Origin: a virus
Taxonomy: Duplodnaviria; Caudoviricetes
Length of the DNA stretch: 64,000 nucleotides
Virus record (IMG/VR): IMGVR_UViG_3300028591_000074
Coordinates: 32,001 to 96,000 of that record
Strand: one strand, 5' to 3'
Shown: positions 24,650-34,061 of the stretch, in pieces
How the letters are laid out: the number at the start of each line of letters is the position of its first letter
Numbering within the stretch: the stretch's first letter is position 1
Made by a program: the position numbers and the translations under genes
The notes under the pieces: model-generated
Database searches by the model: none
Told to the model about the DNA's origin: nothing
The model's input: the letters and a program-made list of their open reading frames with translations, nothing else

Positions 24650-24940
24650 TGAAGGGAAGGGGGTAGGGGGTTAGGATGTTGTAATGAGTGCGGGGTAGTA
24701 GATTTTTATTTCCCTTAAATTTTCTATTTCTAAATCCACCAAATTTTATTTATTTTATTTAGGATTTTAATGTTTTATTAATATATTTTATTAATATATA
24801 GGGGCAGAAAATAAGCAAATCTGCAAAAATTCATCATACATTTTTGTAATATTACAATTTTGTATATTTATAATTTTAAATAAATATGTAGGATTTATAA
24901 TTGACATTTTATTCAATTTGGATTATAATGAATAAAATAA
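24650..24940. other. Putative replication origin / divergent control region
   Basis: G-tract cluster, then a very AT-rich stretch of about 230 bp, at the coding-strand switch next to the replication operon. Confidence 0.4.
24901..24929 (+). promoter_or_regulatory. Sigma-A consensus promoter
   Basis: TTGACA-N17-TATAAT. Confidence 0.75.
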
Positions 24941-26843: not shown

Positions 26844-26893
26844 TTGACACAAATAGTATCTTGTACTATACTGACAGTAGTACAAGATACTAT
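26844..26893 (+). promoter_or_regulatory. NAD operon promoter with two tandem NrtR operators
   Basis: TTGACA(26844)-N17-TATACT(26867); palindromes ATAGT-N7-ACTAT at 26853-26869 and GTAGT-N7-ACTAT at 26877-26893 fit the NrtR GT-N7-AC box. Confidence 0.8.
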
Positions 26894-26915
26894 TTTTAAG
26901 TTAAGGAGCAGTCAA

Positions 26916-27674
26916 ATGAATAATTACAAGTATTCTTCGGAAGAAGAAAAGCATTATCTTGAATCTTATGATGTGTCACAATATGAAAGACCATCTGTAA
27001 CAACAGATATTGTTATCTTCACCCTGGATAAAGATGATGATCTAAATATTCTACTGATAAAACGTGGATGTCACCCATATAAAAATCATTGGGCGATACC
27101 GGGTGGATTTCTAGAGGTGGGTAAGGAATCGTTGGATGATGCAGCTGCACGGGAACTGAAAGAGGAAACAAACATTGATAATGTATACCTAAAGCAATTA
27201 TATACATTTGGTGAACCAAATCGTGATCCAAGAACTACTGTAGTTTCTGTAGCATACACAGCATTAGTTCCAAAAGAATCATTAAATGTAAAGGCAGGAG
27301 ATGATGCGGAAGATGCACAACTGTTTAAGATTAAATATGATGTAAATGGAATTATCTTCTGCAATGATTCAATCAATATCACAGAAAATGATCTCGCATT
27401 TGACCATAATGAAATTATCCGAACCGCTATCACAAGACTCAGAAACCGTATTGATTATGAGGATGATGCGTTCAACCTACTTAAAGATAAAAGTTCATTC
27501 ACCATATCAGAACTCAAGCGGATTTATGATTCAATCAAGAATACTACATTAGATCTACCGAATTTCAGAAAGATGTTTTTAAGAGAATATGTTAAAACAA
27601 AAAAAGTAGTTGAATTAGATAAGACTATACTATCAAGAGGTTTACCTACTAAAACATACAAGTATGAGGGTTGA
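26916..27674 (+). CDS. nrtR: NrtR-family Nudix transcriptional regulator
   Basis: YERPSVTTDIVIF, WAIPGGF...ARELKEET, LKQLYTFG..NRDPR, LAFDH, and a C-terminal wHTH (FTISEL...NFRK). Confidence 0.9.
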   Translation: MNNYKYSSEEEKHYLESYDVSQYERPSVTTDIVIFTLDKDDDLNILLIKRGCHPYKNHWAIPGGFLEVGKESLDDAAARELKEETNIDNVYLKQLYTFGEPNRDPRTTVVSVAYTALVPKESLNVKAGDDAEDAQLFKIKYDVNGIIFCNDSINITENDLAFDHNEIIRTAITRLRNRIDYEDDAFNLLKDKSSFTISELKRIYDSIKNTTLDLPNFRKMFLREYVKTKKVVELDKTILSRGLPTKTYKYEG

Positions 27675-27677
27675 ATT

Positions 27678-28205
27678 ATGAATGCATTAAATGAAAAAAC
27701 AGCTAAAACAGAAAAGGTCATACATATTATGGTTACTTCATTATGTAATAGGAATTGTAAACATTGTTGTAATAAGCAATATAGTTTAAATGATATTCCC
27801 TATGTAACAGATGAAGAACTTAAAAATGCACATACAATTTGTTTGACAGGTGGGGAACCATTTTTATATGCTGAACCTGCTTCTATTGCTGAATATTACA
27901 AAAGACATTATAAAAATGTCAAAAATATTTATGTATATACTAATGCAAAGGAATTAGCTGATTATTTGAAGAATGATCATTTGATGAATTATATTGATGG
28001 TGTCAATGTTTCTATCAAAACAAAGGCAGATTTAATTGCATTTGATAATATAGTAAAGGATGAACAAATCAATAGAATGACAAGTAATTTGTTATATGTA
28101 TTCAATGATTTACTGCCAGAAAATAAGGGTAATTTTACAGTAGTTAATAGAGAATGGCAAAAGGATTTTAAACCTGCTGATGATAGTATTTTTAGAAGAA
28201 TTTAA
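27678..28205 (+). CDS. Small radical SAM protein
   Basis: CNRNCKHC (CxxxCxxC), LTGGEP, YTN. Confidence 0.85.
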   Translation: MNALNEKTAKTEKVIHIMVTSLCNRNCKHCCNKQYSLNDIPYVTDEELKNAHTICLTGGEPFLYAEPASIAEYYKRHYKNVKNIYVYTNAKELADYLKNDHLMNYIDGVNVSIKTKADLIAFDNIVKDEQINRMTSNLLYVFNDLLPENKGNFTVVNREWQKDFKPADDSIFRRI

Positions 28206-28207
28206 AG

Positions 28208-28702
28208 GTGGTGATATTATTGATTGTAGGATTTTATGGCGGTAAGTTTTTACCAATGCACAAAGGACATCTATATTGCATTGATACCGCTGCTAGACAA
28301 TGTGATCATGTAGTAGTCATCATGTTTATCAATGGGGATGATGAACTTAGGATCATGAAAACAAATCACAGTGAAGAACTTAGTATAGAATCACGGACAA
28401 AACAGGTACAAAGAGTTTGTACACTTTACAACAATGTAGAGTTCCATATTGTAGATGTTATGGATCTAAAGAATCCTGATGGCACAGAAGATTGGGATGC
28501 GGAAACCCCATTAGTTAGAAAATATGTACCTAAAATGGACTATGTATTTTCAAGTGAACCACAATATGGCGAATACTTCAAAAGGGCGTATCCAGAAGCA
28601 ACCCATATAATTGTGGATGCAGAAAGAAAAACATATCCAATCAGTAGCACGATGATTAGAGCGATGAAATTAGTAAAGGAGAAAGAATTATGGATGGTAT
28701 GA
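28208..28702 (+). CDS. NadR-type NMN adenylyltransferase domain protein
   Basis: GGKFLPMHKGH, FSSEPQYG, PISSTMIR; no kinase domain. Confidence 0.85.
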   Translation: MVILLIVGFYGGKFLPMHKGHLYCIDTAARQCDHVVVIMFINGDDELRIMKTNHSEELSIESRTKQVQRVCTLYNNVEFHIVDVMDLKNPDGTEDWDAETPLVRKYVPKMDYVFSSEPQYGEYFKRAYPEATHIIVDAERKTYPISSTMIRAMKLVKEKELWMV

Positions 28703-29490
28703 TGAAAACGATGAATGATGTTGTAGTTACTGAAGAACCGAGTTTTATCGGAAAGATTGGAAAAGCATTTAAAAGTCTGAAGTGGTATGAAATTCTAATG
28801 TGCATAGTGATGCTTGGAATCTCCATCTACTATGCGATTCAACCTCAGGAAGGAACCCCACAATGGCTTGCAATTATCAATTTCATTTCCGGTCTTTGCG
28901 GAATTATCTGTGTATTCTTTTGTGCAAAGGCAAACCGAATGAACTTCCCATTTGCAGTAATCAATACAACTGTGTTTATGATTTATCTTGCATACTTTGG
29001 TATTTGGGCAACCTTTTGGCTGGAAGCAATTGTATATTTCCCAATGAATATAATTTCTTGGGTGAACTGGTACAAGCACAAAGATGAGGAAGATAAACTT
29101 CTGGCGAAATCTAAGAAACTTACCATAGTGCAAAATATACTTGTTACACTAATTATTGTTGCAGTAACAGTATTCGTACACTTTGTACTTCAGTTTCTTG
29201 CTGGAGATACTTGGATGAAGTTTGCAACACAGTTTGGCTGGAATGTAGAAGTTATGAAGTGGCTTGATTCTGCAATCTTCGCAATCGGTGTTGTAGCGGT
29301 AGTTCTTGAAGCACTCAGATACAAAGAACAGTATGTATGGTGGATCATTACAGATGTAATTGCAGTAGCACAGTATGCTATCAAAAAAGATCCTGTATAT
29401 GTAACTAAAAAGGGAATCTATCTGATTGAAGCCGTTATTGGTATCAAGAATTGGCACAAGCTGTCTAAAAAGAATGAAACTAATGAATAA
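28690..29490 (+). CDS. pnuC: Nicotinamide riboside transporter PnuC
   Basis: Multi-TM membrane protein; WLDS...EQYVWWIITDV motif. Confidence 0.88.
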   Translation: MDGMMKTMNDVVVTEEPSFIGKIGKAFKSLKWYEILMCIVMLGISIYYAIQPQEGTPQWLAIINFISGLCGIICVFFCAKANRMNFPFAVINTTVFMIYLAYFGIWATFWLEAIVYFPMNIISWVNWYKHKDEEDKLLAKSKKLTIVQNILVTLIIVAVTVFVHFVLQFLAGDTWMKFATQFGWNVEVMKWLDSAIFAIGVVAVVLEALRYKEQYVWWIITDVIAVAQYAIKKDPVYVTKKGIYLIEAVIGIKNWHKLSKKNETNE

Positions 29491-29503
29491 GGAATCTTAG
29501 AAT

Positions 29504-30031
29504 ATGGCTAACTTCTATTTAATATGTGGCATTAGTGGCGGTGGTAAAACTGTATTAAGCCATAAAATAAATGAACTAAATCCAAATATAAAAATATATG
29601 ATGTGGATGAATATTATGCAAAAATAAATGGAGATGAATGTATCCACGAAAACTTCTTTGACGTATGGATAACATTGTGGAGAGATTTGCATAATAGTGA
29701 ATTGAATGGTGAAGATGTGCTACTTACGACTAATGCACTTATAGTTAGTCAAAGACGACAATTTATTGAATGGTTTCCGACATTTAATCATCATTTGGTT
29801 TGGGTGACTGCCCCAAAGGAAAAGTGTTTTGAGGGTAATAGAAATCGTAAAAGGAAAGTGCCGGAAGAAAAACTTATTAAGGATTGGGAACAAATGGAAT
29901 TCCCAAATGCACATGAATCTGGATGGGATACAATATGTCAGATTACAAATTGTTGGGATGGTGAAAACTACATCATCTTTAATCTAAAAGGTAATATAGA
30001 AGATTTAATTAAAATACATAAAGGAGTGTGA
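29504..30031 (+). CDS. P-loop kinase (AAA_33-like), candidate ribosylnicotinamide kinase
   Basis: YLICGISGGGKT, RNRKRKVPEE lid; located in the NAD operon. Confidence 0.7.
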   Translation: MANFYLICGISGGGKTVLSHKINELNPNIKIYDVDEYYAKINGDECIHENFFDVWITLWRDLHNSELNGEDVLLTTNALIVSQRRQFIEWFPTFNHHLVWVTAPKEKCFEGNRNRKRKVPEEKLIKDWEQMEFPNAHESGWDTICQITNCWDGENYIIFNLKGNIEDLIKIHKGV

Positions 30032-30035
30032 TTTT

Positions 30036-30548
30036 ATGAAGAAATTGCTGATTGTAGTAGATATGCAGAATGATTTTATTGATGGAGTGCTTGGTACACC
30101 GGAAGCACAGAAGATTGTACCAGAGGTTGATAAATATATTAAGATTTTTAATGGTGACGTAGTATTTACACAAGATACACATTTTGATGATTATATGACT
30201 ACACAAGAGGGTAAAAATCTTCCTGTAAAACATTGTATTAAAGGTTCTGATGGTTGGAAGATTACTGATAAGATTTATATGCCTGTTGATAGTGAAGTAT
30301 TTGAAAAATACACCTTTGGAAGTACAGATTTGGGTAATTTTATCAAACTGAATACTAACTATTATGATGAGGTATATATTTGTGGAGTATGCACTGATAT
30401 TTGTGTAATTAGTAATGCTTTATTGATTAAATCATTTTGCCCCGAAATGCCGATTAAAGTTATTGAAAGATTATGCGCAGGTGTTACTGTGGAATCTCAC
30501 AATAATGCTATTAATGCTATGAAAATGTGTCAAATTGAAGTGATATGA
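30036..30548 (+). CDS. pncA: Nicotinamidase (isochorismatase family)
   Basis: VVDMQNDF, TQDTH, HC, FEK, GVCTDICV. Confidence 0.9.
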   Translation: MKKLLIVVDMQNDFIDGVLGTPEAQKIVPEVDKYIKIFNGDVVFTQDTHFDDYMTTQEGKNLPVKHCIKGSDGWKITDKIYMPVDSEVFEKYTFGSTDLGNFIKLNTNYYDEVYICGVCTDICVISNALLIKSFCPEMPIKVIERLCAGVTVESHNNAINAMKMCQIEVI

Positions 30549-31051
30549 AAATAGGAATTGTATTCGGATGTTTTATTCCGTTACACTCCGGTCATGTGAG
30601 TTTAATTAACCGATCTTTATCGGAAAATGATAAAACAATTATTGGAGTATGCGGAAAGGACACAGACAGGGGCAAGGACTTTATCCCATTCAGAGTAAGA
30701 TTAAAACTCATGCGGCAGAAGTATCAAAATGATAATATCGTTGTAGTGCCTATAGATGATGAGAAACTTAAACTGGATGGAACATTCACACATGACAATT
30801 GGGTTAAATGGGGAAATGAATTATTTCAAAATGCAAATATTGACCCATTTGATCCGAATGTAGAATTCACTTGGTACACAGGTGAACCAAGTTACAAAGA
30901 AAAACTTGGAAACATCTATCAGAAACATAAAATCGTTCTTATAGATAGAAATATCAACACTGTATCAGGAACAAAAATAAGGAATAATGTAGAAATGTAT
31001 AAGGACGAAATTGACAAAGATTTTTTAGATTATATTAGAGGGACAAAATAA
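30545..31051 (+). CDS. Second HxGH nucleotidyltransferase (NadM/NadR-like; candidate NaMN adenylyltransferase)
   Basis: FGCFIPLHSGH, VSGTKIR. Confidence 0.8.
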   Translation: MKIGIVFGCFIPLHSGHVSLINRSLSENDKTIIGVCGKDTDRGKDFIPFRVRLKLMRQKYQNDNIVVVPIDDEKLKLDGTFTHDNWVKWGNELFQNANIDPFDPNVEFTWYTGEPSYKEKLGNIYQKHKIVLIDRNINTVSGTKIRNNVEMYKDEIDKDFLDYIRGTK

Positions 31052-31067
31052 TGAAAGGAGGATTTAA

Positions 31068-31847
31068 TTGAAATACGCAATATATGTCATAAAGAATGAC
31101 ATAAATAATAAATGCTATATTGGGCAACATATTGTCAAAAACGAAAGTGCACGAGCATATATGGGTAAAGGTATTGGAATACAGGAAGCCTACAAAACTT
31201 ATGGAAGACATCACTTTTACAAAGAACTATTAGAAATTATTGAAGATAATACAGAAAATCGAGTAATAGCATCTGAACGAGAAAAGTATTGGATTAATAC
31301 GTTGAACACACTTGAACCTAATGGATATAATAGACACCCTGGCGGTATTGGTGGATGTACTAAGAAATCCGGACAAAAAGGTGCAAGAACTCGAAAATTA
31401 AATGGGTATAAACATACACAACAAACAAAAACTAAAATAAGCAATAGCAATAAAGGAAAAACCTTGTCAAAAGATCACAAAAAACATCTATCTGAGAACC
31501 ATCATTTAATCAAAACTTGGATTTTAGTACATGAAAATGGTACTGAAACTACATATACTGGAAGTTTACATGCGTTAATTAGACAGGAAAATTTGGGATC
31601 GTTTAATTCTATAATACGACATTCGTATAAGAAAGAATTTGTTAATGGCATATACATCAAAGATATACGCAAAGAAGATTATGCTATATTACGAAACCAT
31701 AATAGTTCTAAATCAACATTGAGTTGTTATGATCCGATACTTTGTGAAATTTGTACATATAAAAATTTATATCAAAGAAAACGAAGAAACAAGGAGCTCT
31801 ATAAGGATGTAATAGTGGATAAACAAATTATTAAGGAGGATAAATAA
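31068..31847 (+). CDS. GIY-YIG homing endonuclease with NUMOD3-like repeats
   Basis: AIYVIKN...CYIGQH, EREKYWI...PNGYN, HTQQTKTKIS. Confidence 0.85.
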   Translation: MKYAIYVIKNDINNKCYIGQHIVKNESARAYMGKGIGIQEAYKTYGRHHFYKELLEIIEDNTENRVIASEREKYWINTLNTLEPNGYNRHPGGIGGCTKKSGQKGARTRKLNGYKHTQQTKTKISNSNKGKTLSKDHKKHLSENHHLIKTWILVHENGTETTYTGSLHALIRQENLGSFNSIIRHSYKKEFVNGIYIKDIRKEDYAILRNHNSSKSTLSCYDPILCEICTYKNLYQRKRRNKELYKDVIVDKQIIKEDK

Positions 31848-33061
31848 TGAAATTTAACAGAATTATCAACAATCTATTAACTCAAGATTTATATAAATTT
31901 TCAATGACTCAGGCAATCTATCATCAGTTCCCGGCATATAAAACCACATGGACGTTTAAGTGCCGTAATACAGATGTAAAATTTACACCAGAAATGGTTG
32001 AAGAAATTAAGGAACAGATTCAGGCATATTGTCAGTTACAGTTTACAGAAGATGAATTGGGATATCTAGATAGTATACCTTGGCTGAAAGGAAGTTACAT
32101 TGATTTTCTTCGTTTGTGGAGACCAAGGTATGAAGATTTTGAAATTACTACAGATGCTGAATGCGGTCTTTCCATTGAAACAAGAGGTACATGGCTGAAC
32201 ACATCTATGTACGAAATCCCTACACTTGCTATTGTAAATGAAGTATATTTCCGGATGGCTTACAATTATGATGAACTTCTAGCAAGTTTTAAGGAACGAT
32301 TGGATGAAAAGTATAATAAGTTGCATAAGTCTATCTGGTATGCAGGTACCTTTTCGGAGTTTGGACTTCGGCGTAGACTTTCCGCAGAAGCACAGGAAAT
32401 GGCTGTTGATAAGTTTTCACATCTGAATGACACTATGCACGCATCTTCTAAGTTCATCGGAACTTCTAATGTATACCTTGCAAAGAAATTTGGTGTAAAG
32501 CCTGTAGGAACTATGGCACACGAATGGATCATGTGTACAGGTCAGGGAAATCACAAACATAATCCAGCATATTCTAACTGGTATGCACTGGATGCCTGGG
32601 TTAAGGAATATGGTGTGCTAAATGGTATTGCGCTTACGGATACTATCACAACAGATTGCTTCCTTAAGGATTTCCAGCTTACATATGCTACTTTATTTTC
32701 TGGTGTACGGCATGATTCTGGAGACCCATATGCTTGGGGTGATAAGATCATCAAGCATTATGAATCACTCGGTATTGATCCGAAGACTAAGACCCTTCTG
32801 TTCTCTGACAGTCTTGATTTTGAACGTGCAGACAAACTCTTCCGCTACTTTAATCCGAAAACAAATGTAGCATTCGGCATTGGAACATATCTTGCAAATG
32901 ATACGTGTGTTCCTCCGCTGAATATTGTTATGAAGACAACTCTGTGCAACGGACAGCCGATAGCTAAATTGTCCGATGTAGACGGAAAGGGTATGTGCAA
33001 AGATGCAGAATATGTAGATTATCTCAAAAGAACAATTCAGTGGCGTATTGATCATGAGTGA
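31847..33061 (+). CDS. pncB: Nicotinate phosphoribosyltransferase
   Basis: DLYKFSM, EFGLRRR, GTSN, GTMAHEW, GVRHDSGDP, FSDSLD, FGIGT, KLSD..GK. Confidence 0.95.
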   Translation: MKFNRIINNLLTQDLYKFSMTQAIYHQFPAYKTTWTFKCRNTDVKFTPEMVEEIKEQIQAYCQLQFTEDELGYLDSIPWLKGSYIDFLRLWRPRYEDFEITTDAECGLSIETRGTWLNTSMYEIPTLAIVNEVYFRMAYNYDELLASFKERLDEKYNKLHKSIWYAGTFSEFGLRRRLSAEAQEMAVDKFSHLNDTMHASSKFIGTSNVYLAKKFGVKPVGTMAHEWIMCTGQGNHKHNPAYSNWYALDAWVKEYGVLNGIALTDTITTDCFLKDFQLTYATLFSGVRHDSGDPYAWGDKIIKHYESLGIDPKTKTLLFSDSLDFERADKLFRYFNPKTNVAFGIGTYLANDTCVPPLNIVMKTTLCNGQPIAKLSDVDGKGMCKDAEYVDYLKRTIQWRIDHE

Positions 33062-33069
33062 GGTGCTAT

Positions 33070-33807
33070 ATGGAAGATTACAATAAACTGAAAGATGATA
33101 TAATTAAAAATATCAGAGATTGGTTTGATAAAAATGGTTCAACAGCAACCGCAGTTATCGGTATATCCGGTGGTAAAGATTCTACTGTGGCAGCGGCATT
33201 ACTGGAAGAAGCTCTTGGAAAAGATAGAGTATTAGGTGTTATGATGCCAAATGGTATTCAGCCGGATATATCGGATTCTGAACGAGTGATAAAGATTTTA
33301 GGTATTCGCAGTATAACAGAAAACATCAATACCATTTATGCCACCTTTATACAACAACTTATGATGACAGGAATCAATGTTAGTAAAGATACTACAATAA
33401 ATCTTCCACCTAGATTGCGAATGGCTACACTATATGCAATTGCACAAAGTTTACCTGAGGGTGGCAGAGTTATCAATACTTGCAACTACTCAGAGGACTA
33501 CGTGGGGTATAGTACAAAATATGGTGATTCCGCTGGGGATATTTCTATTCTTGGAAATTGCTTTGTCAGTGAAGTCATAGGAATTGGTGATGCACTTGGA
33601 CTTCCGTATGATCTTGTACATAAAGCACCATCGGATGGACTTTGTGGTAAAACAGATGAAGATAGGTTCGGATTCACCTATGATGACATAGAAACATATG
33701 TTCTAACCGGAACAACAGGAAATGCGGAAATTGATGCTAAAATCTTGAAAATGCACAAGGCATCCAGACATAAATATACTGAAATGTACAATTGCACACA
33801 GAGATAA
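33070..33807 (+). CDS. nadE: NH3-dependent NAD+ synthetase
   Basis: GISGGKDS, N..PRLRM, GYSTKYGD, KAPSDGL..KTDE. Confidence 0.95.
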   Translation: MEDYNKLKDDIIKNIRDWFDKNGSTATAVIGISGGKDSTVAAALLEEALGKDRVLGVMMPNGIQPDISDSERVIKILGIRSITENINTIYATFIQQLMMTGINVSKDTTINLPPRLRMATLYAIAQSLPEGGRVINTCNYSEDYVGYSTKYGDSAGDISILGNCFVSEVIGIGDALGLPYDLVHKAPSDGLCGKTDEDRFGFTYDDIETYVLTGTTGNAEIDAKILKMHKASRHKYTEMYNCTQR

Positions 33808-33808
33808 T

Positions 33809-33851
33809 TTATGCGCAGTGGTAAAAATATCGACATTTTGCTACTGCGCAT
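33809..33851 (+). terminator. Hairpin ending the NAD operon
   Basis: TATGCGCAGTGG...GCTACTGCGCATA inverted repeat. Confidence 0.6.
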
Positions 33852-34061
33852 ATTCTATATCGTGTATCAGATTTTTGAACAATCACAAGATTGTGTGTGA
33901 TTTTTGTAGAAAATATATAAATTTTCTGACAATTTTATTGACTTTTGGTAAAAATCGTTGCTATAATGGAAATGTCTGATATAAGGTTAGATTTTTGTAT
34001 AACCACGCACAGGATTCCGAACAGGTGTGCGTGTCTTTACATTTTGGGGGATAAACCTTAA

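Follow-up and report, generated by a model that had tools for sequence, protein, structure and literature searches.

Depletion of nicotinamide adenine dinucleotide (NAD+) is a common immune strategy of bacteria, and three phage pathways that rebuild NAD+ have been proven so far. We know of no report of such a pathway that is switched on by the damage itself. The subject of this analysis is a block of ten genes, headed by a gene for an NrtR-type repressor, in a 64,000-nucleotide stretch of viral DNA (hereafter, the window; positions 32,001 to 96,000 of IMG/VR virus record IMGVR_UViG_3300028591_000074). The best explanation of this block, to which a probability of roughly 0.7 can be given, is an autoregulated NAD+ salvage operon of bacterial-type genes in a lytic-type rumen jumbo phage.

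The NARP1 (Adps and Namat) and NARP2 (Nampt and Nmnat) pathways were described by Osterman et al. (bioRxiv 10.1101/2024.02.11.579819), who already pointed to phage nadR-pnuC operons. The present operon would serve the same purpose, the rebuilding of NAD+ from nicotinamide during infection. Unlike NARP1 and NARP2, however, the present phage has no PRPS-like gene and no second gene of the nicotinate phosphoribosyltransferase (NAPRTase) family, pncB being the sole member in the genome, and its chemistry would proceed through nicotinate and nicotinate adenine dinucleotide (NaAD). In a further difference, ADP-ribose would at most be sensed here, and not recycled. An earlier note on this DNA had seen no phosphoribosyl pyrophosphate (PRPP) synthetase in the window, and this absence extends to the entire 253-kb genome, which has no match to TIGR01251. 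There is also no Nudix gene in the genome other than nrtR. Two family searches found neither a NAD-dependent ligase nor a macro-domain protein in the genome, and hence no phage consumer of NAD+ was found by those searches. Given all these absences, the operon is neither NARP1 nor NARP2. The claim of the earlier note that it is chemically distinct from both therefore stands as far as the PRPS-like and second NAPRTase-family genes are concerned, but the riboside route has been published as NARP3 and Preiss-Handler clusters were reported in 2024.

NARP3 consists of the PnuC-like Bas30_87 and the NadR-like Bas30_86, and counters SIR2-HerA and DSR1 (Sci Adv, August 2026; PMC13464706). In this pathway PnuC imports nicotinamide riboside, which is then phosphorylated and adenylylated to NAD+, and the same sequence of steps is predicted from the genes of the present operon. 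The NARP3 enzyme is bifunctional, combining nicotinamide mononucleotide (NMN) adenylyltransferase (NMNAT) and ribosylnicotinamide kinase (RNK), whereas the present phage has a stand-alone adenylyltransferase domain of 164 amino acids and a kinase apparently of another class. Its genes are, moreover, embedded in a regulated operon of ten genes, and its host would be a Firmicute and not an enterobacterium.

Complete salvage or Preiss-Handler pathways with clustered genes were found in 174 of 668 jumbo phages from animal guts, in clusters such as pncB-nadD-nadE and pnuC-nadR-nadM, and a role in counter-defence was suggested there without testing (Li et al. 2024; PMC11662467). The present phage may be a member of that population, which it resembles in its gut or rumen origin, in its genome of more than 200 kb and in its clustered, complete sets of Preiss-Handler and riboside salvage genes. 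However, those phages have NadD where the present phage has a NadR-type domain, and the paper, by term searches, contains neither "Nudix" nor "NrtR", and it describes no operators and no host-derived promoter cassette.

Bacterial NrtR regulons (Rodionov et al. 2008; PMC2330246) have in common with the phage operon a repressor with Nudix and winged-helix domains that heads NAD salvage genes, palindromic operators with a GT-N7-AC core over the promoter, and the same enzymes. The phage version differs in three respects. Firstly, it is virus-borne, and joins the riboside and deamidating gene sets behind one cassette. Secondly, two NadR-type adenylyltransferase domains would take the place of NadD or a full NadR. 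Thirdly, it adds a polynucleotide-kinase-like kinase for which a search with the kinase as query found no homologue in 306 sampled Clostridia genomes (five that carry close NrtR homologues, and 301 from the order to which one of these five belongs).

The enzymes and both routes are of known kinds, and their occurrence in jumbo phages is published. Full-text literature searches found no description of a phage-encoded NrtR or of operators on a phage NAD operon. New with respect to the searchable literature are the phage-borne, bacterial-type NrtR with its tandem-operator switch, the joining of two operon types of rumen Clostridia behind this switch, and the presence of two stand-alone NadR-type adenylyltransferase domains together with a phage-associated, polynucleotide-kinase-like kinase.

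The predicted NrtR switch

A single sigma-70-type promoter, overlapped by two predicted NrtR operators, would drive the ten genes (Table 1). The operators are 15-bp TAGTA-N5-TACTA palindromes, each with the GT-N7-AC core, and are the only exact matches to this motif within the window. A strict form of the motif matches three times in the whole genome, where chance alone would give about 2.2 matches; the operator pair at nrtR accounts for two of them. The published operator consensus of the NrtR family is a 21-bp palindrome with a GT-N7-AC core (PMC2330246), which the phage motif fits. The start codon of nrtR is the ATG at 26916, with an AAGGAG ribosome-binding site upstream, and not the TTG at 26844; the latter opens a long open reading frame (ORF) but is part of the -35 box of the promoter. 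The encoded protein has both domains expected of an NrtR, matching PF00293 with 63.8 bits (cut-off 21.1) and the NrtR winged-helix domain PF21906 (NrtR_WHD) with 28.7 bits (cut-off 27). Its best matches among solved structures are 2FML, followed by AraR 5BS6 and 3GZ5.

Table 1. Features of the NAD+ salvage operon, in positions of the window
Feature	Position	Strand	Evidence or remark
Sigma-70-type promoter, TTGACA-17-TATACT	26844..26872	+	11/12 consensus positions
NrtR operator 1 (predicted), TAGTA-N5-TACTA, GT-N7-AC core	26854..26868	.	In promoter spacer, overlaps -10 box
NrtR operator 2 (predicted), exact reverse complement of operator 1	26878..26892	.	Centred 24 bp downstream, over probable transcription start
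nrtR, Nudix-related repressor with C-terminal winged helix, 252 amino acids (aa)	26916..27674	+	PF00293, PF21906
Mini radical SAM (rSAM) protein (CxxxCxxC), 175 aa, probably passenger	27678..28205	+	Profile scan
NMNAT-like 1, stand-alone NadR-type adenylyltransferase domain, 164 aa	28208..28702	+	TIGR01526 domain match; HKGH and ISST motifs
pnuC, nicotinamide riboside transporter	28690..29490	+	PF04973 107 bits; TIGR01528 89.3 bits (cut-off 42.45)
Small P-loop kinase, 175 aa, candidate riboside kinase by context	29504..30031	+	AAA_33; polynucleotide-kinase-like fold
pncA, nicotinamidase, isochorismatase family	30036..30548	+	PF00857 86.7 bits
NMNAT-like 2, NadR-type adenylyltransferase domain	30545..31051	+	HSGH motif; profile scan
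Free-standing GIY-YIG/NUMOD3 homing endonuclease, mobile insertion	31068..31847	+	Profile scans
pncB, nicotinate phosphoribosyltransferase	31847..33061	+	NF003704 477 bits (cut-off 379)
nadE, NAD+ synthetase, 249 aa	33058..33807	+	TIGR00552 149.5 bits (cut-off 63.65)
17-bp stem-loop directly after nadE, probable operon end	33810..33852	+	Fold of 33805-33912

The strongest backing for this switch comes from comparison with bacteria. Between the phage NrtR and those of rumen Clostridia (such as Saccharofermentans, Ruminococcaceae and Lachnospiraceae) the identity is 55-77%, and it is 71-77% for the host-type NrtRs of the closest rumen genomes; in the winged-helix segment, phage and bacterial proteins hardly differ. 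Thirty nrtR loci were compared, mostly from genomes of rumen Clostridia and including some of related phages. In 27 of them TTGACA and two operators, 5 nt apart, lie ahead of nrtR. Although the search pattern would have accepted gaps of 1-12 nt, all 27 matching loci have 5 nt (counted between 19-mers). Flanking positions left free by the pattern are almost always the same, in contrast to the variable 5-nt centres of the palindromes. Close phage relatives (L002 and L003) keep the operators and have a changed linker between them. This comparison strongly backs control through the predicted operators by NrtR. The layout of nrtR with tandem operators over a consensus promoter, which had been read from the letters of this one locus, is thus upheld by exact palindromes and by its recurrence elsewhere.

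The same likeness raises the question of which DNA the phage repressor would act on. With a DNA-binding segment nearly identical to that of host NrtRs, operators with the same half-sites, and its gene in first place behind an early-type promoter, the phage NrtR might act mainly on the host and only secondarily on the phage operon and, expressed early, reset or clamp the host NrtR regulon (nrtR-NMNAT-pnuC and nrtR-pncA-pncB-nadE). This is very improbable, since the only non-chance operator pair in the phage genome is that of nrtR's own operon, the layout is the classic autoregulated one, identical to the bacterial loci, and more repression of host salvage would oppose the carrying of salvage genes.

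Genes and predicted routes

The ten genes lie in the order nrtR, rSAM, NMNAT1, pnuC, kinase, pncA, NMNAT2, GIY-YIG, pncB and nadE, with intergenic gaps of 2 to 16 nt, or overlaps of at most 13 nt, throughout. They form one plus-strand block (26844-33852) in a region that is mostly on the minus strand, and their identities come from Pfam and NCBIfam profile scans. At the downstream end, the segment 33805-33912 folds with -35.5 kcal/mol (z -5.4), and the next promoter is at 33938. All the elements listed in the earlier note are present where it had placed them, but it had omitted the rSAM and GIY-YIG genes and had given the riboside genes in the order pnuC, kinase and transferase, while the transferase gene in fact precedes pnuC.

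From this gene content, both a riboside and a deamidating route of NAD+ salvage appear to be encoded. In the deamidating route, PncA would convert nicotinamide to nicotinate, PncB would form nicotinate mononucleotide (NaMN), NMNAT-like 2 would produce NaAD, and NadE would complete NAD+. Because the genome encodes no PRPP synthetase, PncB would depend on PRPP supplied by the host. In the riboside route, PnuC would import nicotinamide riboside, the kinase would be expected to phosphorylate it to NMN, and NMNAT-like 1 would convert NMN to NAD+.

Several features of the proteins are consistent with these assignments. The catalytic Asp, Lys and Cys of PncA, as well as its metal-binding Asp, His and His, all align with those of Pyrococcus horikoshii PncA (1IM5). 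NadE lacks a glutaminase domain, and by its size would be of the ammonia-dependent type. Both NMNAT-like proteins retain the HxGH and ISxT motifs. Among solved structures, NMNAT-like 1 is closest to the NMNAT domain of Bas30_86 from NARP3 (crystal structure 9X6F, E 9.5e-15), and the match covers only residues 10-154 of that enzyme; the gene of NMNAT-like 1 is always paired with pnuC, and the protein is probably an NMN adenylyltransferase. No NadD family score reaches its cut-off in the profile scan, and NMNAT-like 2 would stand in for NadD, adenylylating NaMN. The best evidence for this step is that NMNAT-like 2 is the only adenylyltransferase found by operon-protein queries (tblastn) in the operons of six viral contigs (L183-L188); it is also grouped with NAD genes in L086, L088 and L089. 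The division of NMN and NaMN between the two adenylyltransferases is thus suggested by gene context.

The kinase matches a single profile, AAA_33, and the NadR-type kinase domain (Pfam AAA_28) has no match in the whole genome. No relative of the kinase among solved structures was found by sequence. Its structure model, with a predicted local distance difference test (pLDDT) score of 94, is closest in fold to 4GP6 (Z 17) and T4 polynucleotide kinase (Z 14.4, root-mean-square deviation 2.0), and also resembles PSTK, PFK-2 and zeta toxins. Human NRK1 (2P0E) reaches only Z 10.2, compared with Z 14-17 for polynucleotide kinases, and the 50 fold matches listed do not include NadR. Judging from the model, the kinase and Nrk1 would share the P-loop fold only. 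In the protein atlas the kinase has only viral clusters labelled "AAA_33/Zeta/KTI12", and homologues were found in viral contigs, including those of jumbo phages.

Nine contigs carry kinase homologues of at least 60% identity, and six of these have NAD genes within 8 kb. The gene for PnuC is directly upstream in some of them (L002 and L090), while others stand with pncB and pncA and have no pnuC nearby. The most economical reading of this context is a riboside 5'-kinase, with nicotinate riboside, NAD+ and nucleic acid ends as possible other substrates. The riboside kinase of the earlier note therefore survives in part: a kinase does lie beside pnuC, but it appears to be polynucleotide-kinase-like and not of the NadR-RNK or Nrk1 type, and its assignment comes from context. 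In the host locus L014, the ORF after pnuC was also considered as a kinase; it was rejected, having no P-loop and no Pfam match.

Phage genome, relatives and origin of the operon

The operon is part of a single contig of 253,527 bp, a virus record with a CheckV completeness of 100% and 37 tRNA genes. Genes for a family A polymerase, a primase, a DnaB helicase and a choline-binding amidase (lysin) flank the operon, and genes for a major head protein, a head protease and a tail fibre lie elsewhere in the genome (PHROG matches). Pfam Terminase_6C and Phage_sheath_1 have no match in the genome, which is uninformative for phage identity; the latter is settled by the PHROG head, protease and tail matches. 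The contig is that of a phage, a lytic-type rumen jumbo phage with a probable Firmicute host. A host chromosome, which the earlier note had named as the finding that would undo its reading, or a mis-assembled bacterial island might be suspected from the bacterial-type genes and from a near-syntenic 8.6-kb contig (L012) binned in the metagenome-assembled genome (MAG) of a bacterium. This explanation is rejected, since the operon sits within one complete virus contig between replication and lysis genes of a phage, and a second viral contig, L002, 84% identical, has the same operon with the same phage flanks (an HNH gene and orf387). A megablast search of the operon against 50,697 phage records gave no match, and the records found by protein search are distant.

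Outside the window, some 17 kb at one end of the contig (G000:C1:1-17000) recur at the other (236000-253527), in blocks that are collinear apart from rearranged pieces. The identity is 75-98%, mostly 88-92%, and the shared part includes a duplicated block of five tRNA genes. Either the contig has a long terminal repeat whose copies have diverged, or two strain variants were assembled into one sequence.

A comparison with other phages, as the earlier note had proposed for related ones, recovered NAD gene clusters with nrtR in L002, in L183-L188 and in L107. In L183-L188 (79-235 kb), a terminator, TTGACA and tandem operators are followed by nrtR, pncA, NMNAT2, pncB and nadE. L107, a 230-kb phage, has a different NrtR, 34% identical to that of the present phage, and two copies of ATAGTC-N5-GACTAT just after TGTATAAT boxes, before two blocks of NAD genes. 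One of these sites precedes rSAM, nadE, cinA, orf327, a gene of the deoxyribosyltransferase-like/Nudix kind, nrtR, GNAT and a kinase, and the other precedes pncB and pncA. Further viral contigs have NrtRs that are 36-38% identical, alongside pncB and nadE. Taken together, these contigs show that NrtR-headed NAD salvage is recurrent in large phages. The proteins encoded at the L107 locus (L107:8580-13663), which is of an unrelated lineage, include one with a CinA/PncC domain and one in which a nucleoside deoxyribosyltransferase-like domain is fused to a Nudix domain; the gene directly after nrtR encodes a GNAT acetyltransferase.

The ratio of nonsynonymous to synonymous substitution rates (dN/dS) was determined against L002 for ten genes, namely orf387 and the nine operon genes other than GIY-YIG. 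It is 0.04-0.16 for nine of the ten genes (0.10 for nrtR) and 0.30 for pncA; all compared genes are under purifying selection. The pncA alleles (30036-30548 and L002:7767-8282) share 52% amino-acid identity, while the flanking genes are 93-98% identical, indicating that the allele has been swapped. Along the operon, dS switches back and forth between values near 0.2 and values near 1.0. This points to recombination at the level of modules, with genes exchanged within the operon among related phages.

In a phylogenetic tree, the phage NrtRs are placed within the radiation of rumen Bacillota, a placement compatible with transfer in either direction and with one or more transfers. The bacterial loci are of three kinds: nrtR alone, nrtR-NMNAT1-pnuC (71-85% identical to the phage proteins) and nrtR-pncA-pncB(-nadE) (54-81% identical). 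The phage has both bacterial gene sets behind one cassette, together with NMNAT-like 2, the kinase and the rSAM gene. By these comparisons the phage operon appears to be a composite of two operon types that occur as distinct operons in likely host lineages.

About a dozen rumen Clostridia have an autoregulated nrtR without homologues of the phage NAD genes in the stretch compared. In the only locus of this kind that was examined (L010:8731-11833), nrtR is followed by genes for a leucine-rich-repeat protein and an extracytoplasmic function (ECF)-type sigma factor. A contig of a "Treponema sp." MAG (L024) has a Clostridia-type nrtR-NMNAT1-pnuC locus, 67-81% identical and with the same tandem operators; its presence on a spirochaete-binned contig reflects either horizontal transfer or mis-binning.

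Two genes of the operon have no evident place in NAD+ salvage. The rSAM protein belongs to a family of about 175 aa, with CxxxCxxC, an invariant TGGEPF and a C-terminal DSIFR motif, that is present in 72 viral loci (including L101-L171). NAD genes are nearby in only four of the 72, clustering over 71 viral loci gave no conserved neighbour, and Foldseek gave only weak matches, none below E 0.001. The rSAM gene is therefore probably a passenger, although its counterpart in L107 opens a block of genes with an NrtR-type site in front. A role as NrdG-type activase in a phage-internal pair was rejected, because the genome lacks NrdD. The GIY-YIG gene, a mobile insertion, is most likely a passenger too: the region (31056-31825 of the window) is absent from L002. 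A 47% identical copy lies just before pncB in L088 (L088:3039-3794), and the position of two copies directly before pncB points to the 5' end of that gene as a homing site.

Regulation and possible role during infection

By family precedent, NrtR would occupy both operators, and incoming phage DNA could already be bound by the host NrtR, which is predicted to use the same operator. In the NrtR family, ADP-ribose releases the repressor from DNA in vitro (PMC2330246), and a rise in ADP-ribose would, by analogy, release the phage repressor. As cleavage of NAD+ yields ADP-ribose, destruction of NAD+, for example through defences of the SIR2 or TIR type, would then switch the operon on. By the same analogy, it may have a role against NADase immunity. 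In favour of this reading, 17 of the 301 genomes sampled from the order of G001, a Clostridiales MAG with one of the closest NrtRs, encode SIR2_2 proteins with the sizes of ThsA (about 480-500 aa) and DSR (about 1140-1215 aa); NADase defences thus exist in that order. It is tempting to extend this to a damage-triggered counter-defence, in which the operon is silent until a host NADase floods ADP-ribose, and then rebuilds NAD+ by two routes, including a deamidating "NARP4" and a new, mainly phage family of riboside kinases derived from polynucleotide kinases; this full version is tentative, with the odds somewhat against it.

Several points weigh against one part or another of the best explanation. 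Firstly, NrtR scores 135.7 bits with the equivalog model NF050029 (NCBIfam), well below the cut-off of 400; it is a member of the family and not an equivalog of the founding proteins of that model. Its Nudix box has a one-residue insertion, and the final Gly is replaced by Asn, a form that is also present in bacterial NrtR homologues; REUxEE is kept, and so the protein could also hydrolyse its ligand. Secondly, a promoter at 24901 with 12/12 consensus positions drives the genes for the HNH endonuclease and orf387 (a 387-aa protein, phrog_6160), a unit that ends 27 nt before the NrtR promoter. No terminator was found between 24901 and 26844, which makes read-through into the NAD operon possible, and repression may be leaky or act as a roadblock. 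Thirdly, the kinase appears to lie outside the NadR-RNK and Nrk1 groups, with polynucleotide kinases as its best folds and some homologues that lack pnuC. Finally, the presence of the regulator may simply be a by-product of the copying of these genes, with a role in ordinary homeostasis.

The last point leads to a different view of the whole locus, namely an ordinary auxiliary metabolic module, in which host NAD salvage operons were copied with their switch and provide homeostasis during a long and large replication cycle, with no special link to NADases. All genes but the kinase and rSAM genes have counterparts in rumen Clostridia that are 54-85% identical and stand behind the same promoter cassette, complete NAD pathways were reported for roughly one in four gut jumbo phages (PMC11662467), and ADP-ribose also arises from normal NAD+ turnover. 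However, the ligase and macro-domain searches revealed no phage consumer of NAD+, and experiments have shown that pairs of PnuC with a NadR-like enzyme, as well as other NAD pathways of phages, counter SIR2-HerA and DSR (PMC13464706; bioRxiv 10.1101/2024.02.11.579819). A purely homeostatic module is therefore rather unlikely. The two views are not exclusive.

An autoregulated salvage operon in a lytic-type jumbo phage shows how a phage can hold two separate operon types behind one bacterial-type regulatory cassette, and the locus draws attention to a phage-associated family of kinases found alongside NAD genes. It is also a compact case, with an operator region of 50 bp, one repressor and one small-molecule ligand. 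If the damage-triggered version is true, a phage would sense the product of NADase immunity and use the Preiss-Handler route as counter-defence, and the deamidating route would be the first of its kind to be shown experimentally in any phage.

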